Shown here piece after piece: positions 4,133 to 60,394 of a stretch of 64,000 bases of DNA. Where the stretch lies: assembly GCF_006345805.1 (NCBI RefSeq), contig NC_043007.1, positions 55,180,001-55,244,000 on the forward strand, written 5' to 3'. The notes beneath the pieces are model-generated. The model saw nothing but the letters and a program-made list of their open reading frames with translations, had not been told where the DNA came from and searched no databases. This stretch comes from Octopus sinensis. Its lineage: Eukaryota. Each line of letters opens with the position of its first letter. Position 1 is the first letter of the stretch. The position numbers and the translations under genes were made by a program.

Positions 4133-6542
4133 GATAGCACGTGTATGTGTGTGTGATTGCGGCAGTTTATGTATATGTGTGGTTGCATTTAGTATCGCTT
4201 AAGGTCGTAGGAAGAATTTATAGTAAGAATTTTGGTAGGAGTGGCTGTCTGTTGTGTGTCTTCCTATACACGTGCGTAAGAGAATGGTAAGTAGAAAGTT
4301 GTTTATCTGGTAGTTTGAAGTATGTGTGTGTGCGTGTATTTATATGTTGTGTGTGTGTATGTGTTTTGTGTGCAGGGTGTGTCTGTGTGTGTGTGTATGT
4401 GTGAGTATGTGTGTATGCGTGAGGTTGTGTGTAATTGTCTGCGTGTCTGTATGAGAGTATGTTGTGTGTGTGGGAGGTATGTGTTCATACATATGCGAGT
4501 GTGCGTATGTGTGTGTATGTACGTGTGTATATGTGTGTGTGCGTGTGTGTGTGTATGTGTGTGTCTGCATGTGTGTATGTTCGTGCGTGTGTATATGTGT
4601 GTGTGAACGGGGAGATGTGTGTTGAGTTATGTGTGCGTTTTGTTGCGTGTATGCGCGTGTTTGTGTATGTATGTGTATATGGTTCTGTGTAAGTGTGTAC
4701 GTTTATGTGTGCGTGTATGTGTATACAGGTGTGCGTGTCTGTGTGTTCGTGGGGTTGTGTGGTATCGGTGCAATCTTGTGCGTGTGTATGTGTGTGTGTT
4801 TGTGTACGTTTGTGTGCGCGTGGGTATATGTGTGTGTGTATGTATGCGTGTGTGAGTGCGTGTGTGTGTGTCCGCGCGTATGCGCGTGTGTGCGTGTGTA
4901 AGTGCGTGTGCGTATGTGTATGGAAGTATGTGTGTGTCTATGTACATGTATGTGTGTGGTGTGTGTGGGAGGTATATGTACGTTCATGTGTGTGCACGGG
5001 TGCGTGTATTTTTCGTGTGTGTGTATATGTACGTGTGTGTGTTATGTGTGCGTGGTGCAGAGCGAGGCCAAAGACTGAAATCTCAGAGGGGAATGGTTGA
5101 CCAAGCGGAAGTGACAGACGACTGGGATGTTCGAACGTAGCCTAATATCCCTTAGATGTTCGGTGAACCGGTCGGCCAGTCGACGGCCCGTCTGACCTGC
5201 ATATAGTCTACCACAGAGGTTGCATCTAATACAGTATATGAGGCTAGAAGAGGTGCAAGAGAAGGAATTTGTGATGCGAAGAGTGTACTGATTGGAACCC
5301 GTGAGAGAGGTAGTGTTGATGATGAAGGGGCAGGTGTGGCAGCGGGATCTGAAGCACGGGAAGGATCCAGGGGGCGGGAGAGAAGGTGCTACGGACCAGA
5401 AGATCGCTTAGGTTCCAGGTGCGTTTAAAGGAGGACAAGGGTGGGTTGGGGAAAATGGAGCGGGTGGTGGGATCGAGGTGGAGACGACGGAAGGCCCGTT
5501 GGATCCTCCGACAAAGGGATAGGGTGGAGGGGTGGAAAAGGAGGGTAAAGAGGGTGCGGTTAGGGGGTTGGTGTGTGGAAGGAGAGATGGTGCGATCGAT
5601 TCGACGAGTTCTGGCAAGGGCAGTTTGGATAAGGGTTGAGGGGTATCCTCGATGCATGAACAGGCGGGTATGGTACTGGCACTGAGTCTCAAAATCCTGG
5701 TCCCGGCTGCACAAACGTCGGTGGCGGAGGAACTGGGAGTAGGGGATGGCCCGTTTGGTGTGGAAGGGATGGGAAGAGGAGAAGTTGAGGTAGAGGTGGG
5801 AATCTGGGGATTTGAAGAAGGCGGAGGTGGTGAGAGAGTGGGCAGGCAGAGGTGGTGAGAGAGTAGGTTTGAAGAAGGCGGAGGTGGTAAGAGAGATATC
5901 AAGGAAGTGAACCGAGGTGTTAGAGATAGTAGAAGTGAATTGGAGAGAAGGGTGGAAGTTAGAGAGGAAAGAGATGAAGTGGCAGAATTGTTCACGGGAG
6001 AGGGAGGTGGCACATATACAGTCGTCTATGTTGCGACCGTATAGTTCTGGGGTTGGCCCGGAGAATTGGGAGCATGCTTGGGCCTCAATGTGACCAACAA
6101 ATAGGTTGGCGAAATTGGGGCCCATTCTCGTTCCCTTCGCGACCCCAGACATTGTTGGTAGGTTTACCCGGCGAACGTAAAGTAGTTGAGGGTGAGGACG
6201 AGTTTTGCCAGGCGAAGAAGGGTGGAGTGGTGAGTGTGGGGTCAGGGCGACGGTCGAGGACGTATTGGAGTGCTAAGAGACCGTCGTTGTGGGGGAATTA
6301 CCGTGTATAAGGATTTGATATCCAAGGTGAAGAGGAGGTGTGAGGGGACGAAAAGGGAGAGAAGGAAAAGGAATTGAAGAAGCGAAGAGCGTGATTAGTG
6401 TCGTATATGTGGGATGGAAGGGCAGCAACTAAAGGGGACAGGATACGGTCAAGGTATTTGGAAATGAGTTCGGTGGGGCAATTATAGGCAGAAACAATAG
6501 TAGGGCGGTCAGGGTTATTGGGTTTATGTATTTTGGGAAGGA
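3790..6542 (-). mobile_element. Penelope-like element (Neptune-like), 5'-truncated and frameshifted: RT, GIY-YIG, ~1 kb CA-rich 3' region, hammerhead-bearing terminus
   Basis: FLPKIHKPNNPDRP at about 6540; GVAKGTRMGPNFANLFVG; the catalytic motif is mutated to RNIDDC; KRAIPYSQFLR; LIYCIRCNLCGRLYAGQTGRRLADRFTEHLRDI at about 5150-5245. Both ends abut (TA)n. Confidence 0.9.
3861..3891 (-). ncRNA. Minimal hammerhead ribozyme motif in a Penelope terminus (degenerate stem III)
   Basis: The minus strand reads CTGATGA-A-GAG-ctcca-CTC-GAAAC-ATG. Confidence 0.6.
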
Positions 6543-9110: not shown

Positions 9111-9686
9111 GTATAAATATATATATATATCTTTATATATATAAAACTGAGAATGTGTGTGTGTGTCTGTCTGTCTGCCTGTCTGTCTGTCTGTGTTTCC
9201 CTAAAACTTGAGAACTACACAATCAATTTCATTCAAATTTTACACATGCCTTACTTAGAGTCCATGTAGTTTCATGGGAAAAAAATGTTCAACTTCTTGC
9301 CTAGAGCGAGCCCATAGCAATATCATATCTTCTCCACTATTTCAGTATTACGTGTTAAAAGTGAAACAAAAATATTTCTCTATTTTATGTCAGATGTTTT
9401 CACTTTAACAATAAAAATAATAATAACAATTGAATTATATGTAGTAAGTAATAATTAAAATCAAACTAAAGTATAATATAAGTAAAAACAGCAATTGGTA
9501 TAAAATTGCATCAATGATTTGAACTTGAATAAGTGGTTTCACATGAATGGGAATTAAATAAAAATAAAATCAGCGTGCAGAAATGGAATAGTCCAGATGG
9601 ATAATAAAAAAAAATAAATTAAAGAAAAACTATTGTCTATAAAGTATACAACGTAGACAAAAAAGAAGAGCTAACAATTGCAGTCT

Positions 9687-11535
9687 TCATTGCGTTGGTT
9701 AGTTGTTTTTTCTGTGAACAGTTAAATTGAAAAAATAGGTTGAATCGCGTGAGGCGCTTGCCGCCACGTGTTGGAACCTTGTTATAGAAGGTGCGTCGAC
9801 CCTCAAGTCATGGAGACTTGCGCGGGGGTCGCCGCTACGAGGAGTGATGAGCCTCTTATGGTGGGAGAGGTGTTCTTTGGAAAGGAGCAGTTGATGGATT
9901 GTGAAAGGTTCATCAGGGGGGAGGGTGGCAGCGTGGGGCTGGTCCCGCCTGCTGAAGCGATGGAGGAGAGGAATGGTAGGACTATCACGTGCAGGACGCG
10001 GGACAGAATTGCAGAGGAATTGGTGAGAGTAGTGATGGAGGAGATTGAGAAGTGTCTGGGGGACATTGTGAAAGGGGCAACGTGCGTGAGCGGAGGAAGG
10101 AAGTATGGTGCGGTGGACGTGAGATGCGCAACGGGGGAGGTTGCGGCCTCGTGGCTTCCACGGTTACTGAAGGCTGAAGGCTTCACCATGTGGCTAACAT
10201 GTGAGGGACGAGGGGGGGTTCAGGTAGAGATGCCAGGGGTGCCCCCAGAAATAGAAACGGAAATGCTGGTAACAGCTATCCTGGGGTCGGCAAGGGATGA
10301 AATGGAAATGGGCTCGATCAGGGAGACCAGTGTTGTGAACTGGAGGGGATTCGGAGTGGAGATGTGGCTGATGGCCACAGAGGAAGACATGGAAGGGTTT
10401 CCCTTCCAAATTGAACTTGAAAGTGAGGGAACAATGAGCGTAGTTGTGGAGGGGAGAAGGCCGAACTGCTACTTGTGTGGGTCAGGAGGACACATAAGAG
10501 GGGAGTGTCCGCTATATGAATTCACAGCGGAAGGGGAAATGGAGCAGGGAGAGACACAGGGTGGAGAGAACAAAGAAGAGAAGGAAAAAGAACACGAAGT
10601 AAAGAACAGCGAAAGCAAGGAAAAGGATATAACGGTGAAACAACAAGAGAAAGGAAATAACAACACACTGAAGGAAAATGAAATCAAAGGGAAGAAATTA
10701 ATGGAAGAGGAACAGAGTTCACAGGGTAGAGAAGTAATAGAGAAAGAACCAAAACAGAATCAAGAGAAGGAGAGGGAGGGTACACTGGAAGAAAAGAGAG
10801 AAAACAGGGAAAGAACAAGAGAAGGAACAGAAGCAAGAGAAAGGAAAAGATGGTGCACGAAAAGAAAAAGAAACAACAGGAAAAGAACATAAGGCACAGG
10901 GTAGAGAGACGACAGACAAAGAGCCAAAAAGACAAGATAAGGAAAAAGAAAGAAGAGAAAACAAAAAGAGAGAAAGAGAGAATCAAAGAGAGGAGAACAA
11001 GGAAGAAATAAGCCCGAAAAGGAAGATGAAGGAAAACGCAGGATGGAAACAAGATTACTATTACTATAAGTTAGTAACCTACCATTTCTGCCCTGAAATG
11101 AGTGAATTAACAAGTAAAACGGAGGGACATATATGGGTCAACAGGATGACCGACCGGTGGGAGGAGACTGCTCTAATCCCCGAGGAAGGTGCCGCTGAGT
11201 TCTTCAGAGCTGCCGGAGAGAGTGTAATATTTTACACGAAGGTTCGAGTGAGAGAGCGGCTACCTGAGGACTCAGTGATGGACTTCAGAGAAGTGGAAAC
11301 AATTATAGAAGATGTATAGAATTGTGAGAGGAAAAAAAAAGAGAAAAAAGAAAATTTGGTGAAATATATGTGACGAATATGTAACCTCTTGATTCCGGGG
11401 ATCTTATTGTAAATATTCTTTCATATGTCATTATTATTTTTATTTTTCCCTTTTCTTGTCATTCGCTTTCTTATTTTAAGTTCCCCGATTGTATTATCCC
11501 CTTTATGTTCGCCCTTTGTGGGTAGTAATAAAATC
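9687..11535 (+). mobile_element. ORF1-only (HAL1-like) non-autonomous element related to the adjacent Tx1-like LINE
   Basis: Shares the 5' motif TCATTGCGT and the 3' tail TTGTATT.TCCCCT.TATGTT.GCCC.TTGTGGGTA.TAATAAAA with the neighbouring LINE. No endonuclease or RT sequence lies between the ORF1 end (11319) and the tail. Confidence 0.8.
9768..11319 (+). pseudogene. Gag-like ORF1p with a CCHC zinc knuckle and an E/K-rich region; one frameshift near 10860-10890
   Basis: CYLCGSGGHIRGEC knuckle. The blocks GRKYGAVDVR, VPPEIETEMLVTAILG and VVVEGRRPNC align with ORF1 of the next element. A second frame continues to the TAG at 11319. Confidence 0.8.
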
Positions 11536-11790
11536 ATTGCAGTCTTCATTGCGTAGTGAGTTATTATATTTTCCTCTGTTATATTCTACTGTGTTTTTGA
11601 AATACTGTTGACTTTGTCTGTATTGTCTGTTGTTGTACAATTATTGTAATCAGCCTTCTTGCGAGGGCTTCGTGTTGGTGTTCCCCCCTCCGTGGGGGAA
11701 AAACTATCATTATTGCTGCATTTGAGGCTTGCAAAACAAAAAACTTTTTGTCGCGGTTGTGCTAAAGGCTTGTTAAGCCAGTTTTCGGAG

Positions 11791-13087
11791 ATGGACTCCC
11801 CCATCTCCTATTCACCCGTGTCAAGTGATGCAGGATCACCGGCGGTGTCGCCGAGAATAGAAGAGACCCCAGCACCAGCTAGAAAATTTTCCGAAGTGGC
11901 CGGAAAGAAAGTTAAAAATATCGACACAGAAAACCTTCAGAAATACGCAGAATGTTTTAAAAAAGAGGGCACAGAAGTAACGGTGTTTACGAATGCCCCA
12001 AAACAAGAAGAAATTGAAAAAAAAAGAATCATATACAAAACATTTAATATTACAAGCAAGTCTATTCAAAAAATAGAAGAAAAAAAGATCGAAAATTACT
12101 TGAAACCGATTTGGAATAAGATCACTTACATTAATCGCGGGAAAAAGTACGGTACAGTGGAGGTGAGATTTGAAACAGAGGAAATAGCCAAAAAGCTATC
12201 TACGGAACCTATGAAAGCAGAGAATATTGTTCTCCTCCCCCTGCATAGAGGCAAAAGAACTTCAAGAATAACAATAAATAATATTCCGCCAGAAGCGGAC
12301 GCCACATGTCTGGTGGCAGCAGTTATGGTAGGCCTGGAGGATAAAATAAACATCCTCCGGGCCACAGTAGAAGAGGAGGAACATTGAAAAGGGCAGCGTA
12401 TCTCGATGGCCATACAGGCAGAGATACAAACCCTCGAAGATATACCGGAGACACTGAAAATCAGTGAGGACGAAAGAGTCGTGGTCTTTGTGGAGGGTAG
12501 AAAGCCGAGGTGCTTCGGCTGCAGAAAGAAAGGGCATGTGAGGGCAGAATGCCAACCCAAACCGCAGGAAGCAGCTCAGCCAGATAAAAAAACGGAAGAA
12601 GTGTCACCAGAATCAACGCCAGACAGCCCAGAAGGGACAACTGAAGGTGAGGAGGTGACGGAATCAGCGGCGGAAGTAACAAAAGAAACAAAAAGCGAGG
12701 AAACGAAAAATGAGGAGGGGTGGTCAAAAATCACTAGGAAAAAAAGAAAAACTGAAACCACCCCTCCGAAAGTAAGCCTAAAGAAAAAAAGAGAAACATT
12801 AAACTCATTTATGGCCATTAAGGCCTCAAATAATAGACTCATTGATGTGTTGGCAGCTATGGCCAAAGTAGAAAAAAAAAAAAAAAAAAAACGATTTCAT
12901 ATTGTACAGGATAGGCCGGAAGGATTACGGACGGATAAAGTCCGAATTTTTTCATGACGTGGGCCCTCTCAGAATGGATATATTATCACCATATATATTC
13001 GAGGGCCTGCGTCAGACTCCCCCACGAGGCCCAGAAAAAGAGGAAAAAAATGAAGAAGAGAAAGGAAAAGTCGAACCACTGATATAA
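11791..13087 (+). pseudogene. Tx1-like ORF1p (zinc knuckle)
   Basis: ATG at 11791; CFGCRKKGHVRAEC. The in-frame TGA at 12385 falls where the paralogue has Trp (EEEH*KG vs VVNWRG). Frameshift in the A-run at about 12871-12891; TAA at 13085. Confidence 0.85.
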
Positions 13088-13095
13088 GGTAAGTC

Positions 13096-16000
13096 ATGGA
13101 TTACATTTATGTTGGTTGTTTAAATGTGCGCGGCCTGGAATCAAGCTGGAAGCAAGGTCGCTTCCTTAATGATATCAGGTCGCGTAATTTGGATGTTATT
13201 GTTGCTACAGAAACCCGGTTAGAGGGGCCAAGAGGTCTACTCCCGCTGTTTGACGGCTACGAGTGTTTTTTCTCTCCGGCCAGTCCTACAGGCGTGGGTG
13301 GGGTGTTGGTCCTATTAAAAAGAAACCGGGTTTTTGAGAAAAAGTTAATTTTTTCAGACCCAGAAGGTAGGCTGGTCGTCATGGATTTGACGTTCAGTAA
13401 CGGTAAAGTTATCAGACTGGTTGCAATTTACGCACCCAACCAAAAAGGGCAAAGTGATTATTTTCGAGAACTGGAAAACTTTCTTGGTACTTCGCATTCA
13501 TTAGTTGTGCTAGGAGACTTTAACACAATTTGCAAAGCGGATGTAGATTGTGTTGGCTTGCGTCCAGATAGAAAAGGTAACATTGGCTTCCTGGAACTGC
13601 TAAGCCGCTTTGAGCTAGCAGATCCTTATAGGTTGGAATTTCCGAACGCTCCATTGTGGACATGGTCAAACAGCGACGGATCTTCCAGGTCATACATAGA
13701 TAGGATACTAATTAGAAAAGTAGACAGAAAAATAGCTAAGTGTCCACAGTTTTACCTGGTCAGCTACAGTGATCATAAAATGGTCACCTGTAAGCTTGAC
13801 ATAGATAAGGTTAAAAATAGAGGCTCCGGTTACTGGAAACTTAATACGTCCCTTTTGGCTATTAAGGAGTACAGAGACCGGATTAGGACTATAATTCAGA
13901 GGGCGCTATCTGGTGCCATCATTAATAACAAATGGTGGTATGCCCTCAAGCGAGCCATCAAATTCGAGTCTATTAGATATAGCATAGGATTAGTGGCTAG
14001 AGAGGCTAGGAGGGAATCTACTCTAGTTAAGGAATTAGAGGAAGCCTTGAAAACTGGCTCTGCGACTCAGGTGACGGCCAAGAGACTGGCGTTAAACCAG
14101 CACCTCGAGGCCAAACACATGGGCTGCATTGTCAGGGCTAGGATCCGCGCAATGGGTTGTGAAGGAATCAACGCCGTGAGATGGGCCCGAGTGGTGGAAG
14201 CTCAGCGTGGTAACGACGCCACGATTCGATCTATGACGAACCAACAAGGTGAGTTGATAAACGAGCCCGAGGAGATGTGTGAGGCCTTTCAGGAGCACTT
14301 CGCTCAGCTTTTCGGTGAGTGCGGCGGACTGGATAGGAGGAGGGCCTTTACGGACCTCTTCGACGGGCTGCCGCGCTTATCGGGGCGAGATGCGGAGGGC
14401 TATGAAGGGCCAATCACGCCTGGGGAGGTGGTTGAGGCGATGGTGGACTGCAGCGCGGGCAAGGCGCCGGGTTTAGATGGTCTACCCTATGAGTTATATA
14501 AGAGTATGCCAGACTTGTTCGGGCACCTACTGGCGGAGGTCTATACGAACTGGCAGCAGAACGGGTTCATACCCAGATCTGTGCGCCGGGGAGTAGTGAA
14601 ACTCGTCAGAAAGTACCCGAGCAAGGGGGAGTGCATTGATAATTTCAGGCCCATCACTCTGCTAAACACAGAGTTGAAGATTTTGGCCAAAGTGTTATCG
14701 AAAAGATTAGCGCGTGTCGCGGATGGTCTGATCGGGGAGGCACAGACAAGTGCCGTTCCCGGCAGAACCATTCAGGATAATCTCCATCTTATGCGGTACA
14801 CTATAGAGGGGTTTAATAGTGATTCTGGCAAAAGGTGGGGCACTGGTCCATTTAGACCAACTAAAGCATTCGATAGGGTCGACCATCGCTACCTGGTATC
14901 TGCCCTGGCACAGTTCGGGCTGGGCCTTGGCTTCCTCAGGTGGATTATCTAAATTTACGACAACATCGACTCGGTAGTTCGGGTGAACGGTTTTTGTCGA
15001 AGCCGTTCAACATCAATCGCTCGGTTCGTCAAGGGTGTCCGCTCTCCCCGCTTTTGTACGTGATGGCTCTTGAGCCATTACTGCGAAAACTGAGCGGCAT
15101 CCCGAGACAGCCAGGTTGTGGAAAATCAGTGTCAGCGTACGCGGATGACATCACCATCATCGTAACCGAAATGGACCACCTACAGAGGGTAAGCAAGGCC
15201 ATAGAGGTTTACGAGACGGTGACAGGAGCAAAGGTTAATCGTGAAAAGTCAGTCGGCTTGCAACTCGGCACCTGGAAAGGCAAGTCAATGCCTCCTGACA
15301 GCGTCGTGGGACGTTGGACGGAGGGTCCGATTAAGTTGCTAGGGGTTTGGTTCGGTCCAGACCTCCAAATAGAGAAGAATTGGGGCGAGGTATCGAGCAG
15401 GGTGGCTGCAGTAACCAAGACCTGATCTTGGCGGTGGCTATCCCTGAAAGGGAGGGCGGAGGTAGCCAATGTGTTTATCGCATCGGTTATCACCTACCGC
15501 CTTTCCGTCATTCCTTGCCTTGATTCGTGGTTGATCAAGTTGGAAAGACAGCTCTTCTACTTCTTGTGGAAGGGCGGGAAACCACTTGTGAAACGCTCTA
15601 CTTGCTGTCAACAACCGTTAAAGGGTAGGCTAGGGATGCCTTGGCTGATGATGCGCAGACATGCGCTGATGTTAAGACATCTGTGGCTCTACCTGGATGG
15701 TGAACGGGTGTGGTCTCCGCTAGGAAAACTGATGTTTCCCAAGTTCACTAGTTTCGGTGGATGGGAAACCTGGCTGAATCGTAGATCGAAACTGGGCACA
15801 TGGTACACGGAGTGTCGCAAGGCTCTCCTGCTATTCTGTCGCTCGGGCAACGCCTGCGGTGGGGGTTCCACCACATTCTTCTATAGAGGGTTGGTAGAGG
15901 CGGAATGTGAAGATACCTTGGGGGAAACCCTAGGTCTCGACGATAATCAGCTGGCCAGTCTGTTCCGACGTACGTTCGAGCCGAAGACACCGGACAACTT

Positions 16001-16490
16001 CCAGAAGTCTCTGGCATGGCAATGCTACAGAGGAGCTCTACCTGTTCGGGATAAACTCGCAAGGCACGGTGGCCAAGACAGTCCGATATGTCCAAGATGC
16101 GAGCGGGATAAGGAAACCGTCCCGCACGCTATTGTTCATTGTTCGGTCGTGTCAGAGGTGTGGGTTTACGCCGAACAGCTGTTGTCAAGCACACGAAGAG
16201 TACAGCTGTCGACTGAGTCTATTACAAAAATTGACCCACCAGATTTCCTCGCGAAAGAAAGTAAGAATAGTTTTCTCGTTGTAGTAGCAATTGCGAAAGA
16301 GGTGATATGGAAGACGAGAATGAAAGGTTTACGGTCAGGCAAGTTCATCTCCGGCCCTGGTTTGATGAATTACTTCATCTTTCACCTGAAAAGGAAGATA
16401 GGGCTGGAGAGAAAATGCCTGACTAAGAGAGTGTACGAAGAACGATGGAAAGATGTAGCACGAAAGTTGCGAGTGGATGATCCCACATAA
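13096..16490 (+). pseudogene. Tx1-like ORF2p: APE endonuclease, reverse transcriptase and C-terminal Cys motif
   Basis: CLNVRGL, ATETR, VLGDFN, SYIDRI, SDH (APE); KAPGLDG, NFRPITLLN, KAFDRV, RQGCPLSPLLY, AYADD (RT); CPRC...H...C. Frameshifts at about 14830-14990 and a stop at 15423. Confidence 0.95.
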
Positions 16491-16912
16491 ATGTAAAACT
16501 AGACGAAACCAAAGTATCAGTAGGGAGGCGGGGCTCGTGGGGTCCGAGCTAAACCCGCTCCCACTCCATCCGTGATGTCTTCCGGTCTGTTCCTCATTCA
16601 ATTTTTAATATTTTTGTAATTTTTGTAAAGTTTTAAATTCGCCTTTTTTTGCAAACCCATTCGTTAATCAGACCCCACATCAGGTTGTATTGTCCCCTCT
16701 ATGTTTGCCCCTTGTGGGTAATAATAAAACAATTCCAGTCTCTTATATATTTTGAGTATTGCTATCACTAGCGATATCAAGATATAACTTTGTATTTTGC
16801 ATTTTATGTGTAGATGTATATATATAGATGTACATGTAATATGTACACATATATATACACATATACACATGCACTAGCACTATGACCCGGCAACGACGGG
16901 TCTTTAATGCTA

Positions 16913-16968
<56 letters not shown>

Positions 16969-16972
<4 letters not shown>

Positions 16973-17160
16973 GGAAAGTTTACGAAAATAAACAAAGGAC
17001 GAAGGCAGGTGGAGTAAAAACAAACAAATGTATTAGTATAGCGCTCAGGAATAGAAAAAGTCTTTTACGTTTCGAGCCTACGCTCTTCGACAGAAAGATT
17101 CACAAAAAAAAACAAGGAGAGAAAAATATGCGTGTAGGAGCTAACGATCTATCATGGCGT
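16969..17160 (-). mobile_element. Solo Penelope terminal-repeat fragment inserted in (TA)n
   Basis: Homologous to the termini at 43200-43340, 45060-45232 and 54420-54597. Confidence 0.75.
17061..17098 (-). ncRNA. Minimal type I hammerhead ribozyme motif with a variant core
   Basis: TCTTT-CTGTCGA-A-GAGC-gtag-GCTC-GAAAC-GTA-AAAGA: 5-bp stem I, 4-bp stem II, palindromic ACGT stem III, GUA cleavage triplet. Confidence 0.7.
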
Positions 17161-17389: not shown

Positions 17390-19628
17390 TACTTACCTCC
17401 TCCCCCAAAATAACAAAACGAAAGAACCAAAAACTAGACATGTTTATCTACTACCTATAAGATTTTGACATCTATTCTAGTAGAGAAAACATATACGTTT
17501 ATGGAAGAGAATAACCTCTTTCTCATTGAACAAAAAGGATGCAGACGAGGCTCATACGAATGCAAAGATCAGCTCCTAATTAATCGCATGATCCTTGAGA
17601 ACTGCCATAACAAGCGCAGAAATCTCAGCTCTTCATGGATTGATTATAAAAAAGCCTTTGACAGCATACCGCATTCGTGGATTCTGAAATCGCTGGACAT
17701 TTTCAAAATTTCTCTTGTGATTTCAGATTTTTTAAAGTATAATATATCACTATGGAACACGAAGCTCCAATTATATCATTCTAATGGAGAATTGCGCTCA
17801 AGCAACATTAGCATAAACTGTGGAATTTTCCAAGGTGACTCACTTTCATCACTAATTTTCTGCATAGAACTAATACCACTCTCAAGTGAACTGAATAGAA
17901 CAGGATATGGCTACAAAATTGACAACAGGAAAATAAGCCATCTATTTTATATGGATGATTTAAAGCTATATGCCAAAAAAAAAAAAATGGCTTGAAGGAT
18001 TATTACATACCGTGAAAGGATTCAGTGATGATATCGGGATGGAGTTTGTCCTTGAAAAGTGTGCCAAAGCCACTTTTAAGAAAGGGAAATTGGTAAAGTC
18101 TAGTTCAATCGAATTAGATGTCGAAACAGTAATAAAGGAACTTGAGCAGGAACATGCAAGCATGAAAGAGAAGGTTAGGAAGGAATGCTATAGAAAAGTT
18201 CGAGCTGTCCTGAAGTCTGAGCTGAATGTATATAATAAGGTGTTAGCCATAAATTCCTTAGCAGTACAAGTTGTTCTTTATAGCTTCAATTTGCTTAACT
18301 GGAATACCAGTGAAATAATGAAAATTGACAGAAAAATCCGCAAGCTACTGACTTGTAATAAGATGCACCATCCAAAGGCAGACGTGGATCGCCTTTACCT
18401 TCCCAGAGCTCAAGGAGGTCGAGGTTTGATCCAGCTTGAACTTACATACAAAACCACCACAATCGGACTGGCCAAATACCTTGAAGTAACCAACGATTGG
18501 ATGCTAAAACTTGTTGAAAAACATGAAAGACCGAAAAAACTTCACTCTATTCTCAAAGAGAGCAAAAAATTCGCTGCTGATCTCTTAGATACCCACCAGA
18601 TTGATCAGGCTGAAGGAAATGCGCCAACTGCAGCTGCAAAGAAAATAAAATTAATTGCAAAGACAAAAGCACATGAACATTTAGCTAGCAGATGGGAACA
18701 GAAACCTCTCCATGGCAAGTATGTGACCCGTAGCAAACAAGCTGATGTCGACCAGAAACACACGCACCAATGGTTACGAAGCTCAGGGCTAAAAGCAGAG
18801 AGTGGAGGTTTCATATTAGCTGCTCAAGACCAAAGCTTATTAACCCGGAACTACCAAGCCAATGTGGTAAAAAATGGAGCTGACCCAAAATGCCGATTCT
18901 GTAACGATGAGATTGAAACAATAGACCACCTAATCTCAGGGTGTAGAGTCTTAGCACCTGCAGAATATAAAGCAAGACATGACAGAGTCGGCCAGTATTT
19001 ACATTGGACAATATGTAGGTATTATAAAATCAAAACCGCTGACAAATGGTATAAATACCATCCTGAAGCTGTGACTGAGGGAGAAAATGTGTCGATTCTA
19101 TGGGACTTCCCTGTACAGACCGACAAGACTATAAAAGCTAATAAACCGGATATTATTATAAAAGATCAGACAAAAAAGATGTGTGTATTAATTGACATGA
19201 GTATCCCTTGCGATCACAATATAGCGGCGAAAGAATTTGACAAGATTAGTAAATATAAAGACCTGCTAATAGAAATTGAAAAAATGTGGCATCTCAAGGC
19301 GACTACAGTACCAGTGATTGTAGGATCTCTAGGAATGATAAAAAAAAGGTACTGAAACCTATTTGAAAATGATTCCAGGCTTACCATCCCTACAGGAAGT
19401 GCAAAAAATCGTATTAACTGGAACGGCTCATGTACTGAGAAGAGCATTATCGCTGTGAAAACAACATCCATCCATGAATTTATTTATTTATTAATTTTTA
19501 AATACATATTTTATCTGTGAATTTGCGTATGTAGTCTGGGAATGCATACAATGAGCTTCTCTGCCCTAGGTGTATGGAAAACACTGGGCGAGAAATGGAA
19601 GAAAATTTGAAGAAAGAAGGAAAGAACA
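17390..19628 (+). mobile_element. 5'-truncated R4/Dong-clade LINE (RT, CCHC, restriction-like endonuclease) flanked by (TAA)n
   Basis: EQKGCRRG, WIDYKKAFDSIPH, GIFQGDSLS, HLFYMDDLKLY, ADVDRLYLPR, CRFC...H...C, RHD, ANKPDII...IDMSIP...KY.DL. Frameshifts occur at A-runs (about 17980 and 19345), the YKYLG block appears deleted, and the stop is at 19458. (TAA)n lies at 17335-17388 and from 19629. Confidence 0.92.
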
Positions 19629-30879: not shown

Positions 30880-33567
30880 CTCTTTAACAGGTCGGGCGGA
30901 TTTCTTTCGACGTTTAGAAGTATTCCTAGGAACGTCTCGTCCTTTACTTTTAGTGGGGAATTGGAATGCTATCTTGGACACACATATGGACTACGTGGGC
31001 AGAGATAGGAATAGACGGGGATGCAAATGCCTCAGAGACCTGCTCAGACGCTTTCAACTGTCTGACAGGTACGGACTCAACCACCCGAATGCGCCAACGT
31101 GGACATTGAGCAACCGCATCGGGTCGTCGAGATCGCATCTAGATAGGATACTGTGCAGGACAGTAGATAGAGATAGCATAGGATGTCCACAATTCCACAT
31201 GGTCAGCTACACAGATCACCAACTTGTGACATGTACGCTAGACTTAGGTAAGACGCATAGGCAGGGTCCCAGGTACTGGAAACTAAACGTGTCTTTCCCA
31301 TCGAGACAAGTTTTCAGAGACCGGATTAGCACACTAGTAAAGAGGGCTTTGACGGGAGCCATCATCAACAACAAATGGTGGTTTGCCCTCAAGAGAGCAA
31401 TAAAAGCAGAAGCGATTAGGTATAGCAAAGCACTAGCCATAGATAGAAACAGAGTAGAGAGTGAGCTAGTTAAGAGGCTAAAAGAGGCATTTAGAAGCGG
31501 AATCGCATCCAACGTTTTGGCGGCGAGGTTGGCCCTCGACCAACACTTCAACGCCAAACACGAAGAGTGTGTTGTCAGAGCTAGGATGCGTGCTCTAAGG
31601 AACGAAGGTGTTGGAGCCGCGCGAGAGGCTCGGGTGGCAGAAGCGCAACAGGGCAACAAAGTCACCATTCGGTCTCTGGTAGATGAACAAGGGCGCGAAT
31701 TACTCGAGCCAAGTAAAATGTGCGAGGTCCGTCAATGATGCCCCCTCTCGTCGCTTCTATACGTATTGACTCTCGAGCCATTACTGCGGAAGCTGGCGAC
31801 TCTGAGGGACATCCCGCGAGAATTGGGATGCAGGACGAGCGCGTCTGCATACGCGGACGACGTCACCGTCATAGTGTCTAGCCACGAGCAGATCGAGCTG
31901 GTCGGCGAGACACTGAAAGACTACGAAGTGGTGACAGGAGCGAAAATCAACCGGGAAAAGTCAGTGGGCTTGCGGCTCGGCACATGGAGAAGCAAACCCA
32001 TGCAATCCACCAGCGCCTCCGTAGTGGGACGCTGGACCGACGGTGCAGTCGAGTTGCTCGGGGTCTGGTTTGGTCCAGACCTCCAAATGGAGAAGGACTG
32101 GAACGAGATAACGAGTAGGGTGGTCACTCTCGCCCGGCAATGGGCCGAGAGGAAACTGTCCCTAAAAGGTCGGGCGGAAGTGGCGAACACGTACATCGCG
32201 TCCATCATCTACAACCGCCTGACCGTTGTGCCTTGTCCCGACCCTACCATCACCAAACTAGAATGCATTCTCTTCCGCTTCTTGTGGAAAGGATGCGTCC
32301 CGATGGTCAGGCGATCCATTTGCTGTCAACACCCGTTAAAAGGAGGACTGGGCATGCCGAGGTTGATGATGCGCAGACACGCGCTGAGACTGCGACATCT
32401 CCGGCTTTACGTAGACGACGGTGAACAGATGTGGTCGCCGTTTGTGAGGCACGCTTTCCCGCAGTTCGTCTCCATGACCGAACTGCAGTCGTGGATCAAA
32501 GTGAGGCCGAGGAAGGGCAAATGGCATCGCGAGTGTCGTGTTGCTCTCAAGCAACTATGCCATCCCAGGTTGACCTTGAGCGACTTCAACACAACCAAAG
32601 CATTCTATAGGGGGTTAGTGGAGGTGAGGTATGACGACGATCTCAGGGCGAACCTGGGCGTCGACGAGGAATACTTGACCCGCCTGTTCAAGACGACTTT
32701 CGGGCCGGGACCTATGGACAACGTCCAGAGATCCCTGGCTTGACAGTGCTACAGAGAAGCGCTACCCGTTCGGGATAAGCTCTACAGACACGCTCGAGAA
32801 ACATGGGGCCGACCTGCCCGAGATGCGGTCAGAGCGACAAAACCGTTCTGCACACACTCGTGCAGCGTCCAATCATTTCCGACCTGTGGGCTTGTGTCGA
32901 ACGACTGCTGTCACGTGTGGGACGAGTCGGTTTATCAGCCGAGTCTATCGTCAATATCGTCACACCTTCCTTCAAACAGGAAGGAAGAGCTATTTTCATC
33001 ATACTTGTGGCTATAGTGAAAGAATGTATCTGGTTGACACGTCTGAAAGTATTAGAGACAAACACTTTCTTCTCTAGTCGATCTCTCGTCAACTTCTGCA
33101 AGTATCACTTGAAAAGGAAAGTGAGAGTAGTTTTGTCTAGCGAATGTTTCAAAAAAAGATGGGTGAATGTAGCAAGGATGGCACGTATGAATGACGAAGC
33201 CACCTTGAGCATAATCCTATGAACCCGGAAAAATCTAAAACAGAGAGTTACTTACTTGCAAATAAATGTATTAACATGTGACATTATTGACCGACGTTAC
33301 CGTGGTCTTTTCCGTAGGCTTTTCTTTCCACGGATAAACCTTATCTGCTTCTCCTTTTACACTTTACATCATGACATTTCTGTTATACACGGTTCCTATT
33401 GATCGTTTTTTTCTCTCTTTTTACGATCCATTTTGATCGAAAACCTACCCCCCCTTTTTATTTTTTCTCTTTCTTTTTCTTTTCCTTTTTTTTCTCCCCC
33501 AAAAGAAAACTCTACTTTGTAATTTGTCCTTTCTGTGTTCAACCCTGTGTGGCTAATAAAGAAACAT
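30880..33567 (+). mobile_element. Second Tx1-like LINE (related subfamily), 5'-truncated, with an internal deletion of the RT core
   Basis: Collinear with the ORF2 at 13.4-16.5 kb (GAIINNKWW, AYADD, VWFGPDLQ, LSLKGRAEVAN). It jumps from EPSKMCE to VRQ*CPLS at about 31727. 3' tail TTGTCCTTTCTGTGTTCAACCCTGTGTGGCTAATAAAG. Confidence 0.92.
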
Positions 33568-45329: not shown

Positions 45330-45726
<397 letters not shown>

Positions 45727-48700
45727 ATAGATCAACTCGTGTGTTCCTTTTCATCCTTATACATGTTTGCATGTCAGTGTGTATGTGTATGAGTATGTGT
45801 GTAGACAGTATATATAAGGAACTTCATCGTTATTTAAATTCCACATTTCACAACCATAGCCACAGAATATTTGTACTCAGTTTCAGATACCACGGAAAAC
45901 AGAAAATAAATGTATTCTTTCATTACTTCACATTGTAATTTATATTCCTCAAATATTATGTTTTATATTCTATAATCCGAAATGATATTTTTTTTTATAA
46001 TGATTGAATGTATTTCCATTTTATAAGAATTATCATTCTGATTAATAAGACACAATACTTGAATATTTTCAAAGCACAAGCAAATTTACACATGAAACAA
46101 TGGAAGAATGCGCTATTTTCAATTTCCTGTAGTATTTGAAAGCCCGTACTAATTAATGGGAAATTTCGATTAGCTATTTATATCTTTGTCAGCTTCTGCA
46201 CAATATTCAACTTCATTTAAGGACCTCTGAACAATTGTTAGATATGTCTGCGTAACATACTTCGTAGGTGGCCAGAAAAGATGTGTCTTGGAAGATGTTA
46301 CAGTGTAGAACATTGTCTTGAGGAATGCTGTAGATCTGCATTCCCCAAACATGATAAAGAGCCTCTTTGCTATTAGTCTCTGTTTCGATTTACGATTCAA
46401 TTCATAGTAACGTTGTCTTAATAACCCGGACAGCATGATAGAAGATATGTTGCATCAATTCCGAAACTAAAAGAACCCATACCTAAAGTTTACTTCTATC
46501 ATGTGAAACCAAGATATAATATTTATTGAAAATATTGTTCGGTCTATGGCAGACAAGGACCTTGAAGAATGTAGACGACGAGCTCCGGCTCTTCTGCAGC
46601 AGCTCTCAGTAGAAAGATTTTGAATAAAGTCTGAAGAAGAAAGCAGACACTTACACTACTACTCAAGACTCTCTATATCTCTTTATTTTGCTCATTCATG
46701 TTTACTCAAAAAGAGAACTTGAACCTGGGATTAGATAAAAACGCTCTGCCTACATATCTCTTTCAGAACGCGCAAGTGTGCTTTTTGTTATCTCATCTAA
46801 CCACATGAATATTAGATATATTTCTCCCAAACTTGCTCGAGTGTCGAACTGGAATTCACCAGCAACAATTAAGCTCTCTATAGGGGTTGGGTGGGGTTGG
46901 ATAGGGTCAAGATGTCTGATAACAAAATAGCTCATCTCGATAAGCTGCTTACACGTGAATTAACTGTAAAACTGAATAAGTTACAACTTAACGGATAATA
47001 TTTTGATATATAGTGTATAGCATATATTTCAGACTGAAACCTCTCAACAGTACATATGTACGCATGCCCCCCCCACCTCACACACACATACATATATTAT
47101 TACACACATATGTAAACGTTTAATCATTTTCAGATAACATGAATATGAGGAAAATCTTAGAGAAATTAAGTAAAAATATATAAATAAATTTAACGACTGT
47201 ATCTAAAATTTGAATCATGTATTATTAATGTTGTTGAAGATGGAAATGAAAATAATTTGGGCGGAGACAATTTAAGAAAATAGAAACAAAAGCGTTATTT
47301 TATGTATGTTGCACATCTGTATTGATTTATACATAAGAAATATGTGCATATTTTCCAAACGTATTACAATTTTGATTTTGAATTTAATTTATAGATGAAA
47401 ACCTATTGCTGTTATCTTAAAAGCTATAAAAACAAACAAACAAAAACAAATCATTAGATTTTTCACTATTTCATTCAATCTGATAAGTTTCAATCATTAT
47501 TAAATAGATAATTGCTTCAAATTTTGGAACAATACCAATAAATACAACGAGAAGGGGCCAGTCGATTACATTGGCCTAGTATTTGACTGACACTTTACTT
47601 TAACGCCTTCGAGAGGATGAACAGCAAAGATACTCACGTCGGGATTTGAACTCAAAACGTAAAGAGCAGGGAGGTCTGCTATTAAGAATAATTTGTCCGA
47701 TGCGCTAAAGATTCCCCTAGCTCATCTATTGTCAGTGTATTGAATAAAGAAATGTATAAAAATTTAAATATGTTAGTCTATATCTCCATAATAACAGCGT
47801 GAAGTTGTTGTAATGAATTATCAATGATAATATTAAAAAAACATCGCGTAATGGTCTTTCAAATCTTGTGACTTGGATTAGAATCTTATGACTTAATACT
47901 GAAGAATTTAACAATGTCAAAAATATTGGTTTCAGACTTCGGCACAGTATTGGGGGAGGAGTAAGTCGATTACATCGACTCCAGTGCTCAACTGATACAT
48001 ATTTTATGGACCTCGAAAGGATGAAAGGCAAAGTCAACTTCAGCTCAGAACGTGAAGACGGACAAAATTCCGCTCATCATTTTGCCCGGCGTGCTAACGA
48101 TTCCGCCAGCTCTCCACCTTACGTAATGTCAAATATATCGTTTGTAGATTTTCATCAGAACTTATCGGATGTTAAAGACTTTACGATTAGTTAAAACGTG
48201 ATGGAATTTTATTCATCATAGTTTCCTAAAGAAAATCCAGCGCCATATAAGATTAGGACACCCACCCATTGCTGCTGCTTCCGGAGTTTAACCTATCAGT
48301 TCACACAGAATCCCGTATCCACTTTAAATCGAGTTGATGAGTTACTCCAGCGAATCTCTGAAACGTGTGTTTGCATATTTTCATCTGTGTTATTTGAAAT
48401 AGATATAACGCTGAATGTTATCTTCTTCCCTTTCGACACATAAAATGTCCTCTGAAAGATGATGTCAAGAATTACTCAGCTAGAGAATTATTTGCATTAA
48501 CATTTGTGGACGTTTGTTCGACATTGACTCTACCCACCATCTCCTCGCATATAAATAACGAATTTTATTTCTCACCTTCAAATACACATATCAATAAATC
48601 ACCTCTGCTTCCAGGGTCCTGTCGTCCATGTTCTAACTTCACGACATCTGTTACACCTCACTCTCTCATAATTCATCTTCTTTGGCTAGATATCTTTAGT

Positions 48701-56392: not shown

Positions 56393-58142
56393 ATATATAA
56401 TGCGTATATATATATAATGTGTGCATTATGTGGTCGGTTGAGCTGAAAATATGCACACCTATGTTAAAAGTGCTGGCGAGTTTGCATGGCAACTATTTTT
56501 TCCTCAAATGAAAGGCTGACCTCTAGAACAAAATTCCTCATCTTATAAAATGTGGCCCGAGTAGACCCGAATGAAATCGGGTTATATTAACCAAAATGTG
56601 AAAAGAGGTCTAAATGGGGCTGGAAGGGGATTAAAATTTACAGGAGCGGGTGTTTAGGAATTCTCTGTTACATCAAGCTAAAAAATTTGCGCCAGCCTTT
56701 AAATCGTCAATGTGTTGCCATGATGAAGTTTTGAATGCTTGCCATGGTGAGTCTACTGTCGTGAGAAAGAATCACTTCAAAACTTGGTGTTTAGGAATTT
56801 TCGGATCTTTTCGGTTTGAACGGCAGTTTTTAACATAATTTCTAGGTAACAAAAATTTTTTAGTTACCTAGAAACTTTGTATACTGGTAGAATGTGTTTA
56901 TAAAACATCATTTTCTCTTGGCTTTCTTGAAAAAAATTCTGTAGTTTGTGACATATTTCGTCTTTAATTTCTTGCATTTCGTCAATTTTAACCAATCAAT
57001 GACCGTCTATTGAGGTGAAAGCATTCTGTGCCGTATGAATATGTCCCTCCTTTAAGAAACAGATTGGGTTTATTTACATTTGTGAAAAAAAAGATACCCT
57101 TCCCCCACCCCTGATCCCTAACCCCAACCCTAACTTACCCTAAATCTAAAATAGATTGAAATGCAATAGGTCGATTCTAGGGTCATAATTATGGGTGACA
57201 ATTTCATATGACACCGCTAGAAAAAACTGCCATTTTCTCTAGCGGTGTCATATGAAATTGTCACCCATAATTATGGCCCTAGAATCGATCTATTGCATTT
57301 TAATCTATTTTAGATTTAGGGTTAGTTAGGGTAGGGGTTAGGGATCAGGGGTGGGGGAAGGGTATCTTTTTTTCTTCACAAATGTAAATAAACCCAATCA
57401 GTTTCTTAAAAGAGGGACATATTCATACGGCACAGAATGCTTTCACCTCAATAGACGGTCATTGATTGGTTAAAATTGCCGAAATGCAAGAAATTAAAGA
57501 CGAAATATGTTACAAACTACAGAATTTTCTCAAGAGAGCCAAGAGAAAATGATGCTTTATAAACACATTCTACCAGTATACGAAGTTACCTAGAAATTAT
57601 GTTAAAAACTGCCGTTCAAACCGAAAAGATCCGAATTTTCTTTTACATCAAGTTCAAAATTTTACACCAGCCGTTAAACTGCCACTACGTTGCTGTCCGT
57701 CGTTAAGAAATGCCAGCCATAGTGACTCTACTATCCTCAGATTCTATCCCTTCAAACTTTGGTTTCCAATATTTTAAATTTTTTTATTCAGCTCGCAAGT
57801 TCGTCTGGCCCTTTTAAATGTTAGTGTTTTGCTGTCTGCCTTTAAGCAGACCTTTCTGTTGTCACTGCCTGATATTTATGATTGATCTTTCAAAATATTT
57901 TATTTCTCAACTTACTCAAGATCTTTTGTTGTTTATAAATGGGAGAGAGATAGACTGAGAAAGATAGAGAGTAAGAGAAAGCGAGGGAGAATCCGAGAGA
58001 AATGAAGAGTAAGAGAGTGGAAAAGTGAGAGACAATGGAGAGAGAAACAAAGAGGGAGACTGGTAATAAAAAACAGAAAGGAGGCAACAGAAAGTAACAA
58101 CCACACTCTTACCCGCGCGTAGAGCGGGTCACCTTAAGCTAG
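55816..58142 (+). mobile_element. Second non-autonomous Helitron, hosting the fold-back MITE
   Basis: The 5' end A|TCAATATCTATAAATCTGAAATG resembles the end at 9130. The 3' hairpin ACCCGC-gcgtaga-GCGGGT (58111-58129) is followed by CTAG|T (58139-58142). Both ends lie in (TA)n. Internal ~140-bp diverged direct repeats occur at 56658-56800 and 57633-57770. Confidence 0.65.
56803..57632. mobile_element. Inverted (fold-back) dimer of the Merlin-like MITE
   Basis: The left TIR is present at both ends, ~400-bp arms invert at about 57231, and there is a single TSD GAATTTTC (56795-56802 and 57633-57640). Confidence 0.92.
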
Positions 58143-58214: not shown

Positions 58215-58394
58215 TATATATATAAATATACATACATATATACATATATATATATATAATATATATATGTATATATATATATATAATATATATATATATA
58301 AATATACATACATATATACATATGTATATACATACATATATACATATGTATACAACTATATATATACACATTCACATACACACACCTATATATA

Positions 58395-58680
58395 TGTATA
58401 TTTGGAGGGCAAGCCACTATGTGGTCAGCCGTATGCTAGAAGTAGATCACCTACGATCAAACTACAAAGAAAAGAATGTTCTCTAGAGGAAAATTCAGCG
58501 GACACCAGAACGAAAATGCGGGCAAGACAGTATTTAATTTTCATCTGTCTTGCCCGCATTTTCGTTCTGGTGTCCGCTGAATTTTCCTCTAGAGAACATT
58601 CTTTTCTTTGTAGTTTGATCGTAGGTGATCTACTTTTTGCATACATCCGACCACATAGTGGCTTGCCCTCCAAATATACA
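58395..58680. repeat. Near-perfect palindrome with 136-bp arms and a 14-nt loop
   Basis: 58395-58530 versus 58545-58680. The ORF track gives nearly the same peptide on both strands. Confidence 0.95.
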
Positions 58681-58781
58681 CATGTATTAGAATTTTCTCT
58701 GATTTTTCAGATTTTTGTATGCTAGGCTACTGGTTTTAAATTGATGTTAATTAAATTAATATTCAATTTATCTCCCTCATT

Positions 58782-59995: not shown

Positions 59996-60394
59996 ACTTT
60001 TCTACTCTAGACACAAGGCCAGAAATTTTTTGGGAGGGGGACAGTCGATTAGATCGACCACAGCACGCAACTAGTACTTAATTTATCGACCCCGAAAGGA
60101 TGAAAGGCAAAGTCGACCTCGGCGGAATTTGAACTCAGAACGTAGCGGCAGACGAAATACCTATTTCTTTACTACCCACAAGGGGCTAAACACAGAGAGG
60201 ACAAACAAGAACAGACTAACTGATTAAATCGATTACATCGACCCCAGTGCGGAACTAGTACTTAATTTATCGACCCTGAAAGGATGAAAGGCAAAGTCGA
60301 CCTCAGCGGAATTTGAACTCAGAACGTAACGGCAGACGAAATACGGCTACGCATTTCACCCGGCATGCTAACATTTCTGCCAGCTCGCCGCCTT
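59996..60394 (-). mobile_element. Dimeric tRNA/Nin-domain SINE with a 16-bp TSD
   Basis: Head GGCGGCGAGCTGGCAGAAATG (A box), B box GAGTTCAAATTCC twice, and the core GCCTTTCATCCTTTC.GGGTCGATAAATTAAGTAC twice. TSD AGATTTATATTTAAAT at 59980-59995 and 60395-60410. Confidence 0.9.

Follow-up and report, generated by a model that had tools for sequence, protein, structure and literature searches.

An ORF1-only element and an L1/Tx1-group LINE at one Helitron target in Octopus sinensis, an example of genome-wide retroelement trains

Tx1 elements that target transposons, stacking of copies at a duplicated target, and LINE derivatives that code for ORF1 only are all known, each separately. In crocodilians, Tx1-Mar LINEs and SINEU-3 target Mariner-N4_AMi, a non-autonomous DNA transposon, at two regions; LINE and non-autonomous partner often lie in tandem around the target site duplication (TSD), an arrangement read as sequential insertion, and some 5′ extensions resemble the host transposon (PMC4494074, accessible parts). 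The same source presents Tx1L of Xenopus, a site-specific APE-type LINE nested in Tx1D, a non-autonomous DNA transposon described as piggyBac. In 28S rDNA, R1 forms tandem arrays in which a new copy enters the 5′ TSD of one already present, and TSDs separate the copies; R1A has been noted upstream of R1B, and the upstream target has been discussed as shaping 5′ junctions (PMC2718515, accessible parts). For octopods, L1-Tx1 and Helitron families are reported from Octopus vulgaris, with no nesting mentioned in the accessible parts of PMC13282606.

The window considered here, the whole 64,000-nt stretch of Octopus sinensis DNA that was analysed, contains a tandem pair of retroelements that the original prediction had delimited by three motifs. 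All three were found (AACAATTGCAGTCT at 9673–9686, ATCATTGCAGTCT at 11533–11545 and AACAATTCCAGTCT at 16728–16741), as were an identical 19-mer at both 5′ starts (an exact shared run of 19 nt, from 9677 and 11536) and near-identical tails of ~45 nt (40 of 45 nt in common, 11489–11533 versus 16685–16729). The motifs are confirmed to mark where two elements join each other and the non-autonomous Helitron around them, namely A, which codes for ORF1 only, and B, a full L1/Tx1-group LINE that is now broken; beyond the tail, A and B have little DNA similarity. The features of the locus are as follows.

9130..9676, + strand: Helitron 5′ part, short subtype, starting with TC directly after an A and ending in the tract GTAGACAAAAAAGAAGAGCTAACA immediately before the target; 84–94% identity to the 5′ parts of other copies.
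9677..9695, + strand: left copy of the 19-nt duplication, ATTGCAGTCTTCATTGCGT, the probable TSD of the A insertion; TSDs of the family elsewhere are mostly 14–21 bp.
9696..11535, + strand: element A, ORF1-only (HAL1-like), non-autonomous, with the 3′ end AATAAAATC.
9810..11319, + strand: ORF1 of A, with predicted alpha/beta domains and a CCHC knuckle; open over 9810–10892, C-terminal part in another frame, stop at 11317–11319.
11489..11535, + strand: 3′ tail of A, common to B, with a small predicted GCCC/GGGT hairpin ahead of AATAAA.
11536..11554, + strand: middle copy of the 19-nt duplication, the 5′ junction of B; a target copy likely part-overwritten by the target-like leader of B.
11555..16731, + strand: element B, a full-length L1/Tx1-group LINE, now broken, with the 3′ end AATAAAACA.
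11791..13062, + strand: ORF1 of B, with a premature stop at 12385–12387 and a frameshift further on; 3′ limit approximate.
13096..16490, + strand: ORF2 of B (APE endonuclease, reverse transcriptase, zf-RVT), interrupted.
16685..16731, + strand: 3′ tail of B, common to A.
16732..16913, + strand: Helitron 3′ part, with the original target ATTCCAGTCTCTTATA, a hairpin at 16884–16902 and the end CTAG directly before a T.

By itself, the 10-mer motif shows no excess over chance in the window (7 matches at ≤1 mismatch, 4.9 expected), whereas the 19-mer has only two occurrences in the 2.72-Gb genome, both at this locus; the signal is thus the placement of the motif at three junctions together with the 19-mer, rather than the 10-mer alone. 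The duplication begins at ATT (9677, 11536 and 16732), and copies outside the Helitron show that the ATC or ACA before it is part of the elements’ 3′ ends. The right junction retains Helitron sequence, while the left and middle junctions deviate from it. Because non-Helitron loci fix the 3′ ends and TSD size of the family, the 19-mer can be seen to match, in length and placement, a TSD formed at the 5′ junction of B, and it is best read as a local target duplication from A inserting there. A relative of B (C4_77.39) carries the leader variant TTGCAG...ATTGCGTAG, which would account for the G and the TTGCGT of the window 19-mer.

The host shows the termini of a Helitron (5′ TC, 3′ CTRR in the form CTAG, insertion between A and T) and a hairpin of −11.3 kcal/mol, a hairpin also present in 28 of 30 empty copies, most of which end in CTAG before a T. 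Empty copies hold the motif exactly once, as the original prediction required of the empty Helitron: the short subtype, with at least 149 empty pattern matches, reads GAAGAGCTAACAATTCCAGTCTGTTATA, and the long subtype, which has ~320 extra bases and at least 926 empty matches, reads GAAGATTTGAACAC(A/C)TGGAGGAAAGCACC. The A allele occupies 22 of 26 multi-unit filled long-subtype sites, and the C allele looks commoner among 100 listed empty sites, judged without an exact count. Site-specific insertion within the Helitron, as proposed, is supported, but ATTGCAGTC alone does not describe the target: the consensus at the site is ATTCCAGTCTGTTATA, and a second, unrelated sequence, ACATGGAGGAAAGC, holds most arrays. 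Both sites lie just after the same upstream tract, and the family endonuclease likely reads this tract and cuts two unrelated downstream sequences.

Element B is full length yet broken, with a stop in ORF1 at 12385 and stops plus a frameshift in ORF2, in which the Pfam domains PF03372, PF00078 and PF13966 are recognisable. An intact 1131-aa ORF2 from another copy is closest among solved structures to LINE-1 ORF2p (1e-62; R2 at 3e-25), and its nearest matches are unnamed or hypothetical proteins, the nearest named relative being from Argonauta hians (63%). The order of an N-terminal APE, RT and a C-terminal zinc motif places B in the L1 group (L1/Tx1), and the fixed 3′ end, TSDs and many 5′-truncated copies of its family are marks of TPRT. 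Target preference, common in the Tx1 clade though not diagnostic of it, is seen in the 33 census loci, out of 60, that occupy the two Helitron sites. The behaviour of the family is compatible with a Tx1 label, and the clade placement is putative, being based on that behaviour rather than on a tree with named references. More diverged LINEs (76–83% in ORF2) and another ORF1-only family were also observed at the same Helitron sites (L092–L093, L096–L097, L228, L276 and L231), and one diverged LINE there has a tail end, AGAAATAAGAGC, that mimics the upstream target sequence.

The window pair is one example of a genome-wide system of trains. A tail pattern gave 406 matches in the genome, of which the first 100 listed were grouped by hand into 60 loci, each of them read; 33 loci lie in the Helitron, at either of its two equivalent sites, two in a third low-copy repeat, 24 elsewhere, and one was unassigned. 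Many of the 24 loci elsewhere are short and some are likely SINE tails, and 16 bear a duplication of at least 14 nt (15 of 14–21 nt and one of 30), mostly beginning 3 nt after AATAAA, with two of the 16 sitting in simple or tandem repeats. Element 3′ ends are accordingly AATAAA plus ATC or ACA, and the TSD is ~14–21 bp in size. The third host repeat (C3:1.18 Mb, C3:99.39 Mb and C8:81.34 Mb; L286–L292) extends for >1.5 kb per side and carries insertions of the same elements within ~60 bp. Three arrays that might be taken for random off-target arrays (C3_1.18, C3_99.39 and C8_81.33) lie in this repeat and do not count as evidence for nick re-use.

Forty-nine Helitron arrays (the census loci plus extra loci found by similarity) were read to the right end; 38 contain at least two units, with a maximum of 15. 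Adjacency of the two element types, raised as a check in the original prediction, recurs in many arrays, and the order is strongly polarised. Of 32 complete census loci, 31 have an ORF2-coding unit at the 3′-most position; the other positions hold 78 ORF1-only and 11 ORF2 units (three short truncated pieces were scored as ORF1-only); all 21 mixed arrays among these loci end in an ORF2 unit, compared to 7.3 expected under random order. Among the 49 arrays, five consist of ORF1-only units alone, and an ORF1-only unit stands last in two of the mixed ones. 5′-truncated single elements were found at the same Helitron site. On contig C1, with 14 filled and 87 empty sites (exact pattern), nine of the 14 filled sites are multi-unit versus 7.3% under independent insertion (p = 8e-8), a test that is conservative with regard to missed empty copies and less so with regard to inaccessible copies.

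The ORF1-only elements comprise several subfamilies of 1.7–1.95 kb; a similarity search with A gave 486 candidates, of which 40 were scored, and one full-length copy, C3_89.76, stands alone between the two halves of a 16-nt TSD. Comparison with B gave no ORF2 match in A. The ORF1 proteins of A and B had been described as alignable only in short blocks; when another member of the B family, with an intact ORF1, is used, this protein aligns to that of A at 30% identity over 206 aa (E 6e-32). The ORF of A is frameshifted after ~360 aa, and CCHC is present in 11 of 16 aligned ORF1-only members. A protein search with the ORF1 of A returned no relative at E ≤ 0.001; at lead level, the Atlas gives a resemblance to CCHC and ZCCHC3-like RNA-binding proteins (0.90–0.93), and the predicted fold is modest (pLDDT 69, pTM 0.47). 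For seven ORF1-only copies that retain long ORFs, dN/dS lies at 0.08–0.19 with dS up to 1.6, and for A in the window it is 0.17–0.42. The ORF1 of these families is thus under purifying selection, and they represent an old lineage dependent on its ORF1. Element A itself is likely a recombinant of two ORF1-only subfamilies, since the best match is the C7_101.17 type over its 5′ part and the short type over its 3′ part.

The shared tail, GCCCCTTGTGGGTAGTAA, also occurs in the window at 60030–60195 (−), where it forms the end of a SINE-like repeat and has AGAAATAG after it. A depth peak and loose ends in reads at the tail of B point to an abundant family, which may be another passenger of the LINE group of B. 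The accessible part of the MetaSINE paper contained no partner for this tail. Elsewhere in the window, an RT-coding fragment of another LINE type lies just downstream of the Helitron (17500–19355), a second L1/Tx1-like LINE at 30890–33565 (+) is internally deleted, with a different tail and no flanking target motif, and long near-perfect inverted repeats of 141–160 nt with short spacers occur at 45422–45732, 56933–57528 and 58388–58687. Two ORFs at 1716–2327 and 5244–6152 (−) resemble Penelope-type RT/GIY-YIG fragments.

In long-subtype arrays, the last internal junction can be compared to the local A/C allele of the Helitron, and the two agree in all 18 scorable arrays of 26 (15 A/A and 3 C/C, Fisher p = 0.0012; eight unscorable). 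For 16 long-subtype arrays, the left junction resembles the first internal junction of the same array more than the corresponding junctions of other loci (p = 5e-5), and the same comparison for four short-subtype arrays, the class of the window, was not significant (p = 0.085). Read from right to left, junction motifs form a stepwise ladder of variants in which changes are inherited 5′-ward. Outside the Helitron, the evidence for nick re-use retained here is a single site, present on contigs C8846 and C6142 only, where a non-Helitron 16-mer stands left of an ORF1-only unit and again between this unit and the LINE, with a Helitron-like leader after both occurrences; the 3′ end of the LINE is missing, and a third copy of the 16-mer would hence not be visible. 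Reads from two independent sets (X8 and X9) contain a tail-to-head joint of this type. A 5′-younger age gradient was not recovered from private substitutions in 23 arrays (hand tally: 10 for, 11 against, 2 ties), and an older 3′ unit was observed in a few arrays (C2_153.25, C2_86.73 and C1_127.29). Together, the ladder, the allele match and the C8846/C6142 16-mer suggest a target-derived leader on the element RNAs, with units joining the train at the same nick, on the 5′ side.

Very probably, A and B are two separate retroelements at one Helitron target, of which B likely came first and A was likely then added at the 5′ junction of B by the B-family reverse transcriptase, duplicating the local 19 nt. 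Judging from the DNA, the family endonuclease would place its nick a few bases 3′ of the Helitron tract GTAGAGAAAAAAGAAGA, with the shared 45-nt tail as the start of reverse transcription; the element RNA, with its target-like 5′ leader, may anneal to the left target copy and partly overwrite it. As the upstream tract and nick would survive at the left junction, later units could be added there and the train would grow 5′-ward. ORF2-coding RNAs would usually come first, likely through cis preference, and ORF1-only RNAs would follow in trans, either in the same event, while the nick is still open, or later, once the site has been cut again, both of which are compatible with the data. More generally, the head-to-tail, LINE-last trains at one fixed spot likely arose by addition of each new copy at the duplicated target left by the previous copy. 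A bolder version, which we regard as possible but rather doubtful, has trains built in single events, with the LINE RNA copied, then the target overhang, the original primer end regenerated at the unligated nick, and co-packaged ORF1-only RNAs primed serially. If true, the ORF1-only families would be specialised hitchhikers selected for their own ORF1p, making HeT-A-like polarised interstitial arrays. The arrays constitute an ordered record of successive insertions in which each 5′ junction is fixed in sequence, and through this record two points of LINE integration become testable in natural data, namely the formation of 5′ junctions and the use of several RNAs per nick.

The original prediction had offered two successive site-specific insertions or one co-mobilised bipartite unit. 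The former is supported, with empty sites holding one motif and 33 of 60 census loci at the duplicated Helitron target; the latter is not supported for the window pair, as the nearest relatives of both A and B have other partners and internal junctions follow the local allele. A broader form of co-movement, in which read-through yields multi-unit RNAs (ORF1-only upstream of the LINE) that are reverse-transcribed whole from the LINE tail and move as 5′ transductions, is unlikely as an account of the trains. The LINE-last polarity would be explained directly by it, and the order short–long–LINE prevails in a hand count (8 arrays versus 2 reversed). It is likewise favoured by three arrays in different Helitron shells that have the same rare junction variant and close units (C1_69.54, C3_117.95 and C4_27.71), the first two of which are each other’s closest relatives for every one of the three unit types and fit some co-mobilisation. 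Transduced trains, however, are at odds with the local allele at internal junctions (18/18 scorable) and with the local non-Helitron duplication at C8846/C6142. Further, distances between partners were not significantly correlated in three Mantel tests (r = 0.31, p = 0.10 for 8 pairs; r = 0.28, p = 0.10 for 18; r = 0.06, p = 0.38 for 15); the nearest other A standing ahead of a LINE lies 19.8% away from window A, while window B is 3.7% from a LINE with a different partner. Since partners assort in this way, a fixed A–B unit fails for the window pair. For parts of 11050–17000 there are contigs from two presumed RNA runs, which are uninformative on starts, strand and read-through.

Two further explanations invoke copying of DNA already in place. 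If Helitrons had copied themselves with trains inside, a few insertions would have been multiplied by rolling-circle transposition; arrays do lie within Helitrons with intact ends, the window included, and Kojima raised the same possibility for SINEU-3 (PMC4494074, accessible parts). The third low-copy repeat also points this way, as all seven of its exact matches adjoin elements and three are 95–98% alike across cargo and flank. For the Helitron host, this explanation is largely refuted and hardly tenable: the shells of look-alike arrays differ by 7.0–7.1% while their closest units differ by 0.3%, filled–filled shell distances (median 5.2–5.7%) resemble filled–empty ones (5.2–6.0%) once near-zero values of truncated flank extracts are ignored (C27_6.88, C1_73.40 and possibly C3_81.25), and 5′-truncated singles occur at the same site. 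The Helitron shells thus appear older than their cargo. Very unlikely, too, are independent insertions at a preferred site followed by unequal crossing-over or assembly stutter, with no special re-use of filled sites. Runs of 6–9 near-identical units (95.5–99% alike; C1_69.54, C3_72.15 and C3_72.26) and homopolymer errors at assembled junctions are in its favour, and such processes may explain homogeneous runs, but not the A–B pair; it is countered by the excess of multi-unit sites on C1, eight of nine of which mix ORF1-only and ORF2 units, impossible by duplication, and by the C8846-type joint in independent reads.

In the literature covered (largely open-access papers, as listings, abstracts and parts of the sources cited), no Helitron-targeting L1/Tx1 element and no ORF1-only satellites in such trains were found. 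New in print, as far as this coverage extends, is therefore the combination of a Helitron target, selected ORF1-only partners, strong clustering and LINE-last order, and the Helitron joins the known targets of site-specific L1/Tx1-group elements. Compared to Tx1-Mar and SINEU-3 as described in the accessible parts of PMC4494074, the octopus trains also pair a LINE with a non-autonomous partner in tandem and have leaders that resemble the host, but the host is a Helitron, the partners are ORF1-coding elements of 1.7–1.95 kb rather than snRNA-derived SINEs, the 45-nt tail is common to partners and LINE, and arrays reach up to 15 units with the LINE last. The account of Tx1L and Tx1D in those parts names no ORF1-only partner or polarised train. 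R1 arrays differ in clade and target, all of their units are of autonomous type, and their highest averages are two to three per site (PMC2718515, accessible parts). HAL1 (half-L1) is likewise a non-autonomous L1 derivative coding ORF1p only, though from mammalian L1 and with no target specificity or tandem trains mentioned in the accessible parts of PMC5753468. Element A is HAL1-like in having a LINE ORF1 homolog without ORF2, a family of its own, a LINE-type 3′ end and a selected ORF1; it is not HAL1 proper, the nearest named relative of its partner LINE being an octopod, and thus works like HAL1 but is an independent derivative. In Drosophila, the gag-only HeT-A likewise outnumbers its pol-coding partners TART and TAHRE in head-to-tail arrays that run in one direction and grow at the 5′ end, but those arrays occupy chromosome ends, are described as randomly ordered and have been suggested to form without a nick (PMC5537684, accessible parts), whereas the octopus trains are interstitial, separated by target duplications and ordered. 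The trains thus resemble HeT-A/TART, but at interstitial positions: elements with ORF1 only are more numerous than their autonomous partner and keep their ORF1 under selection.
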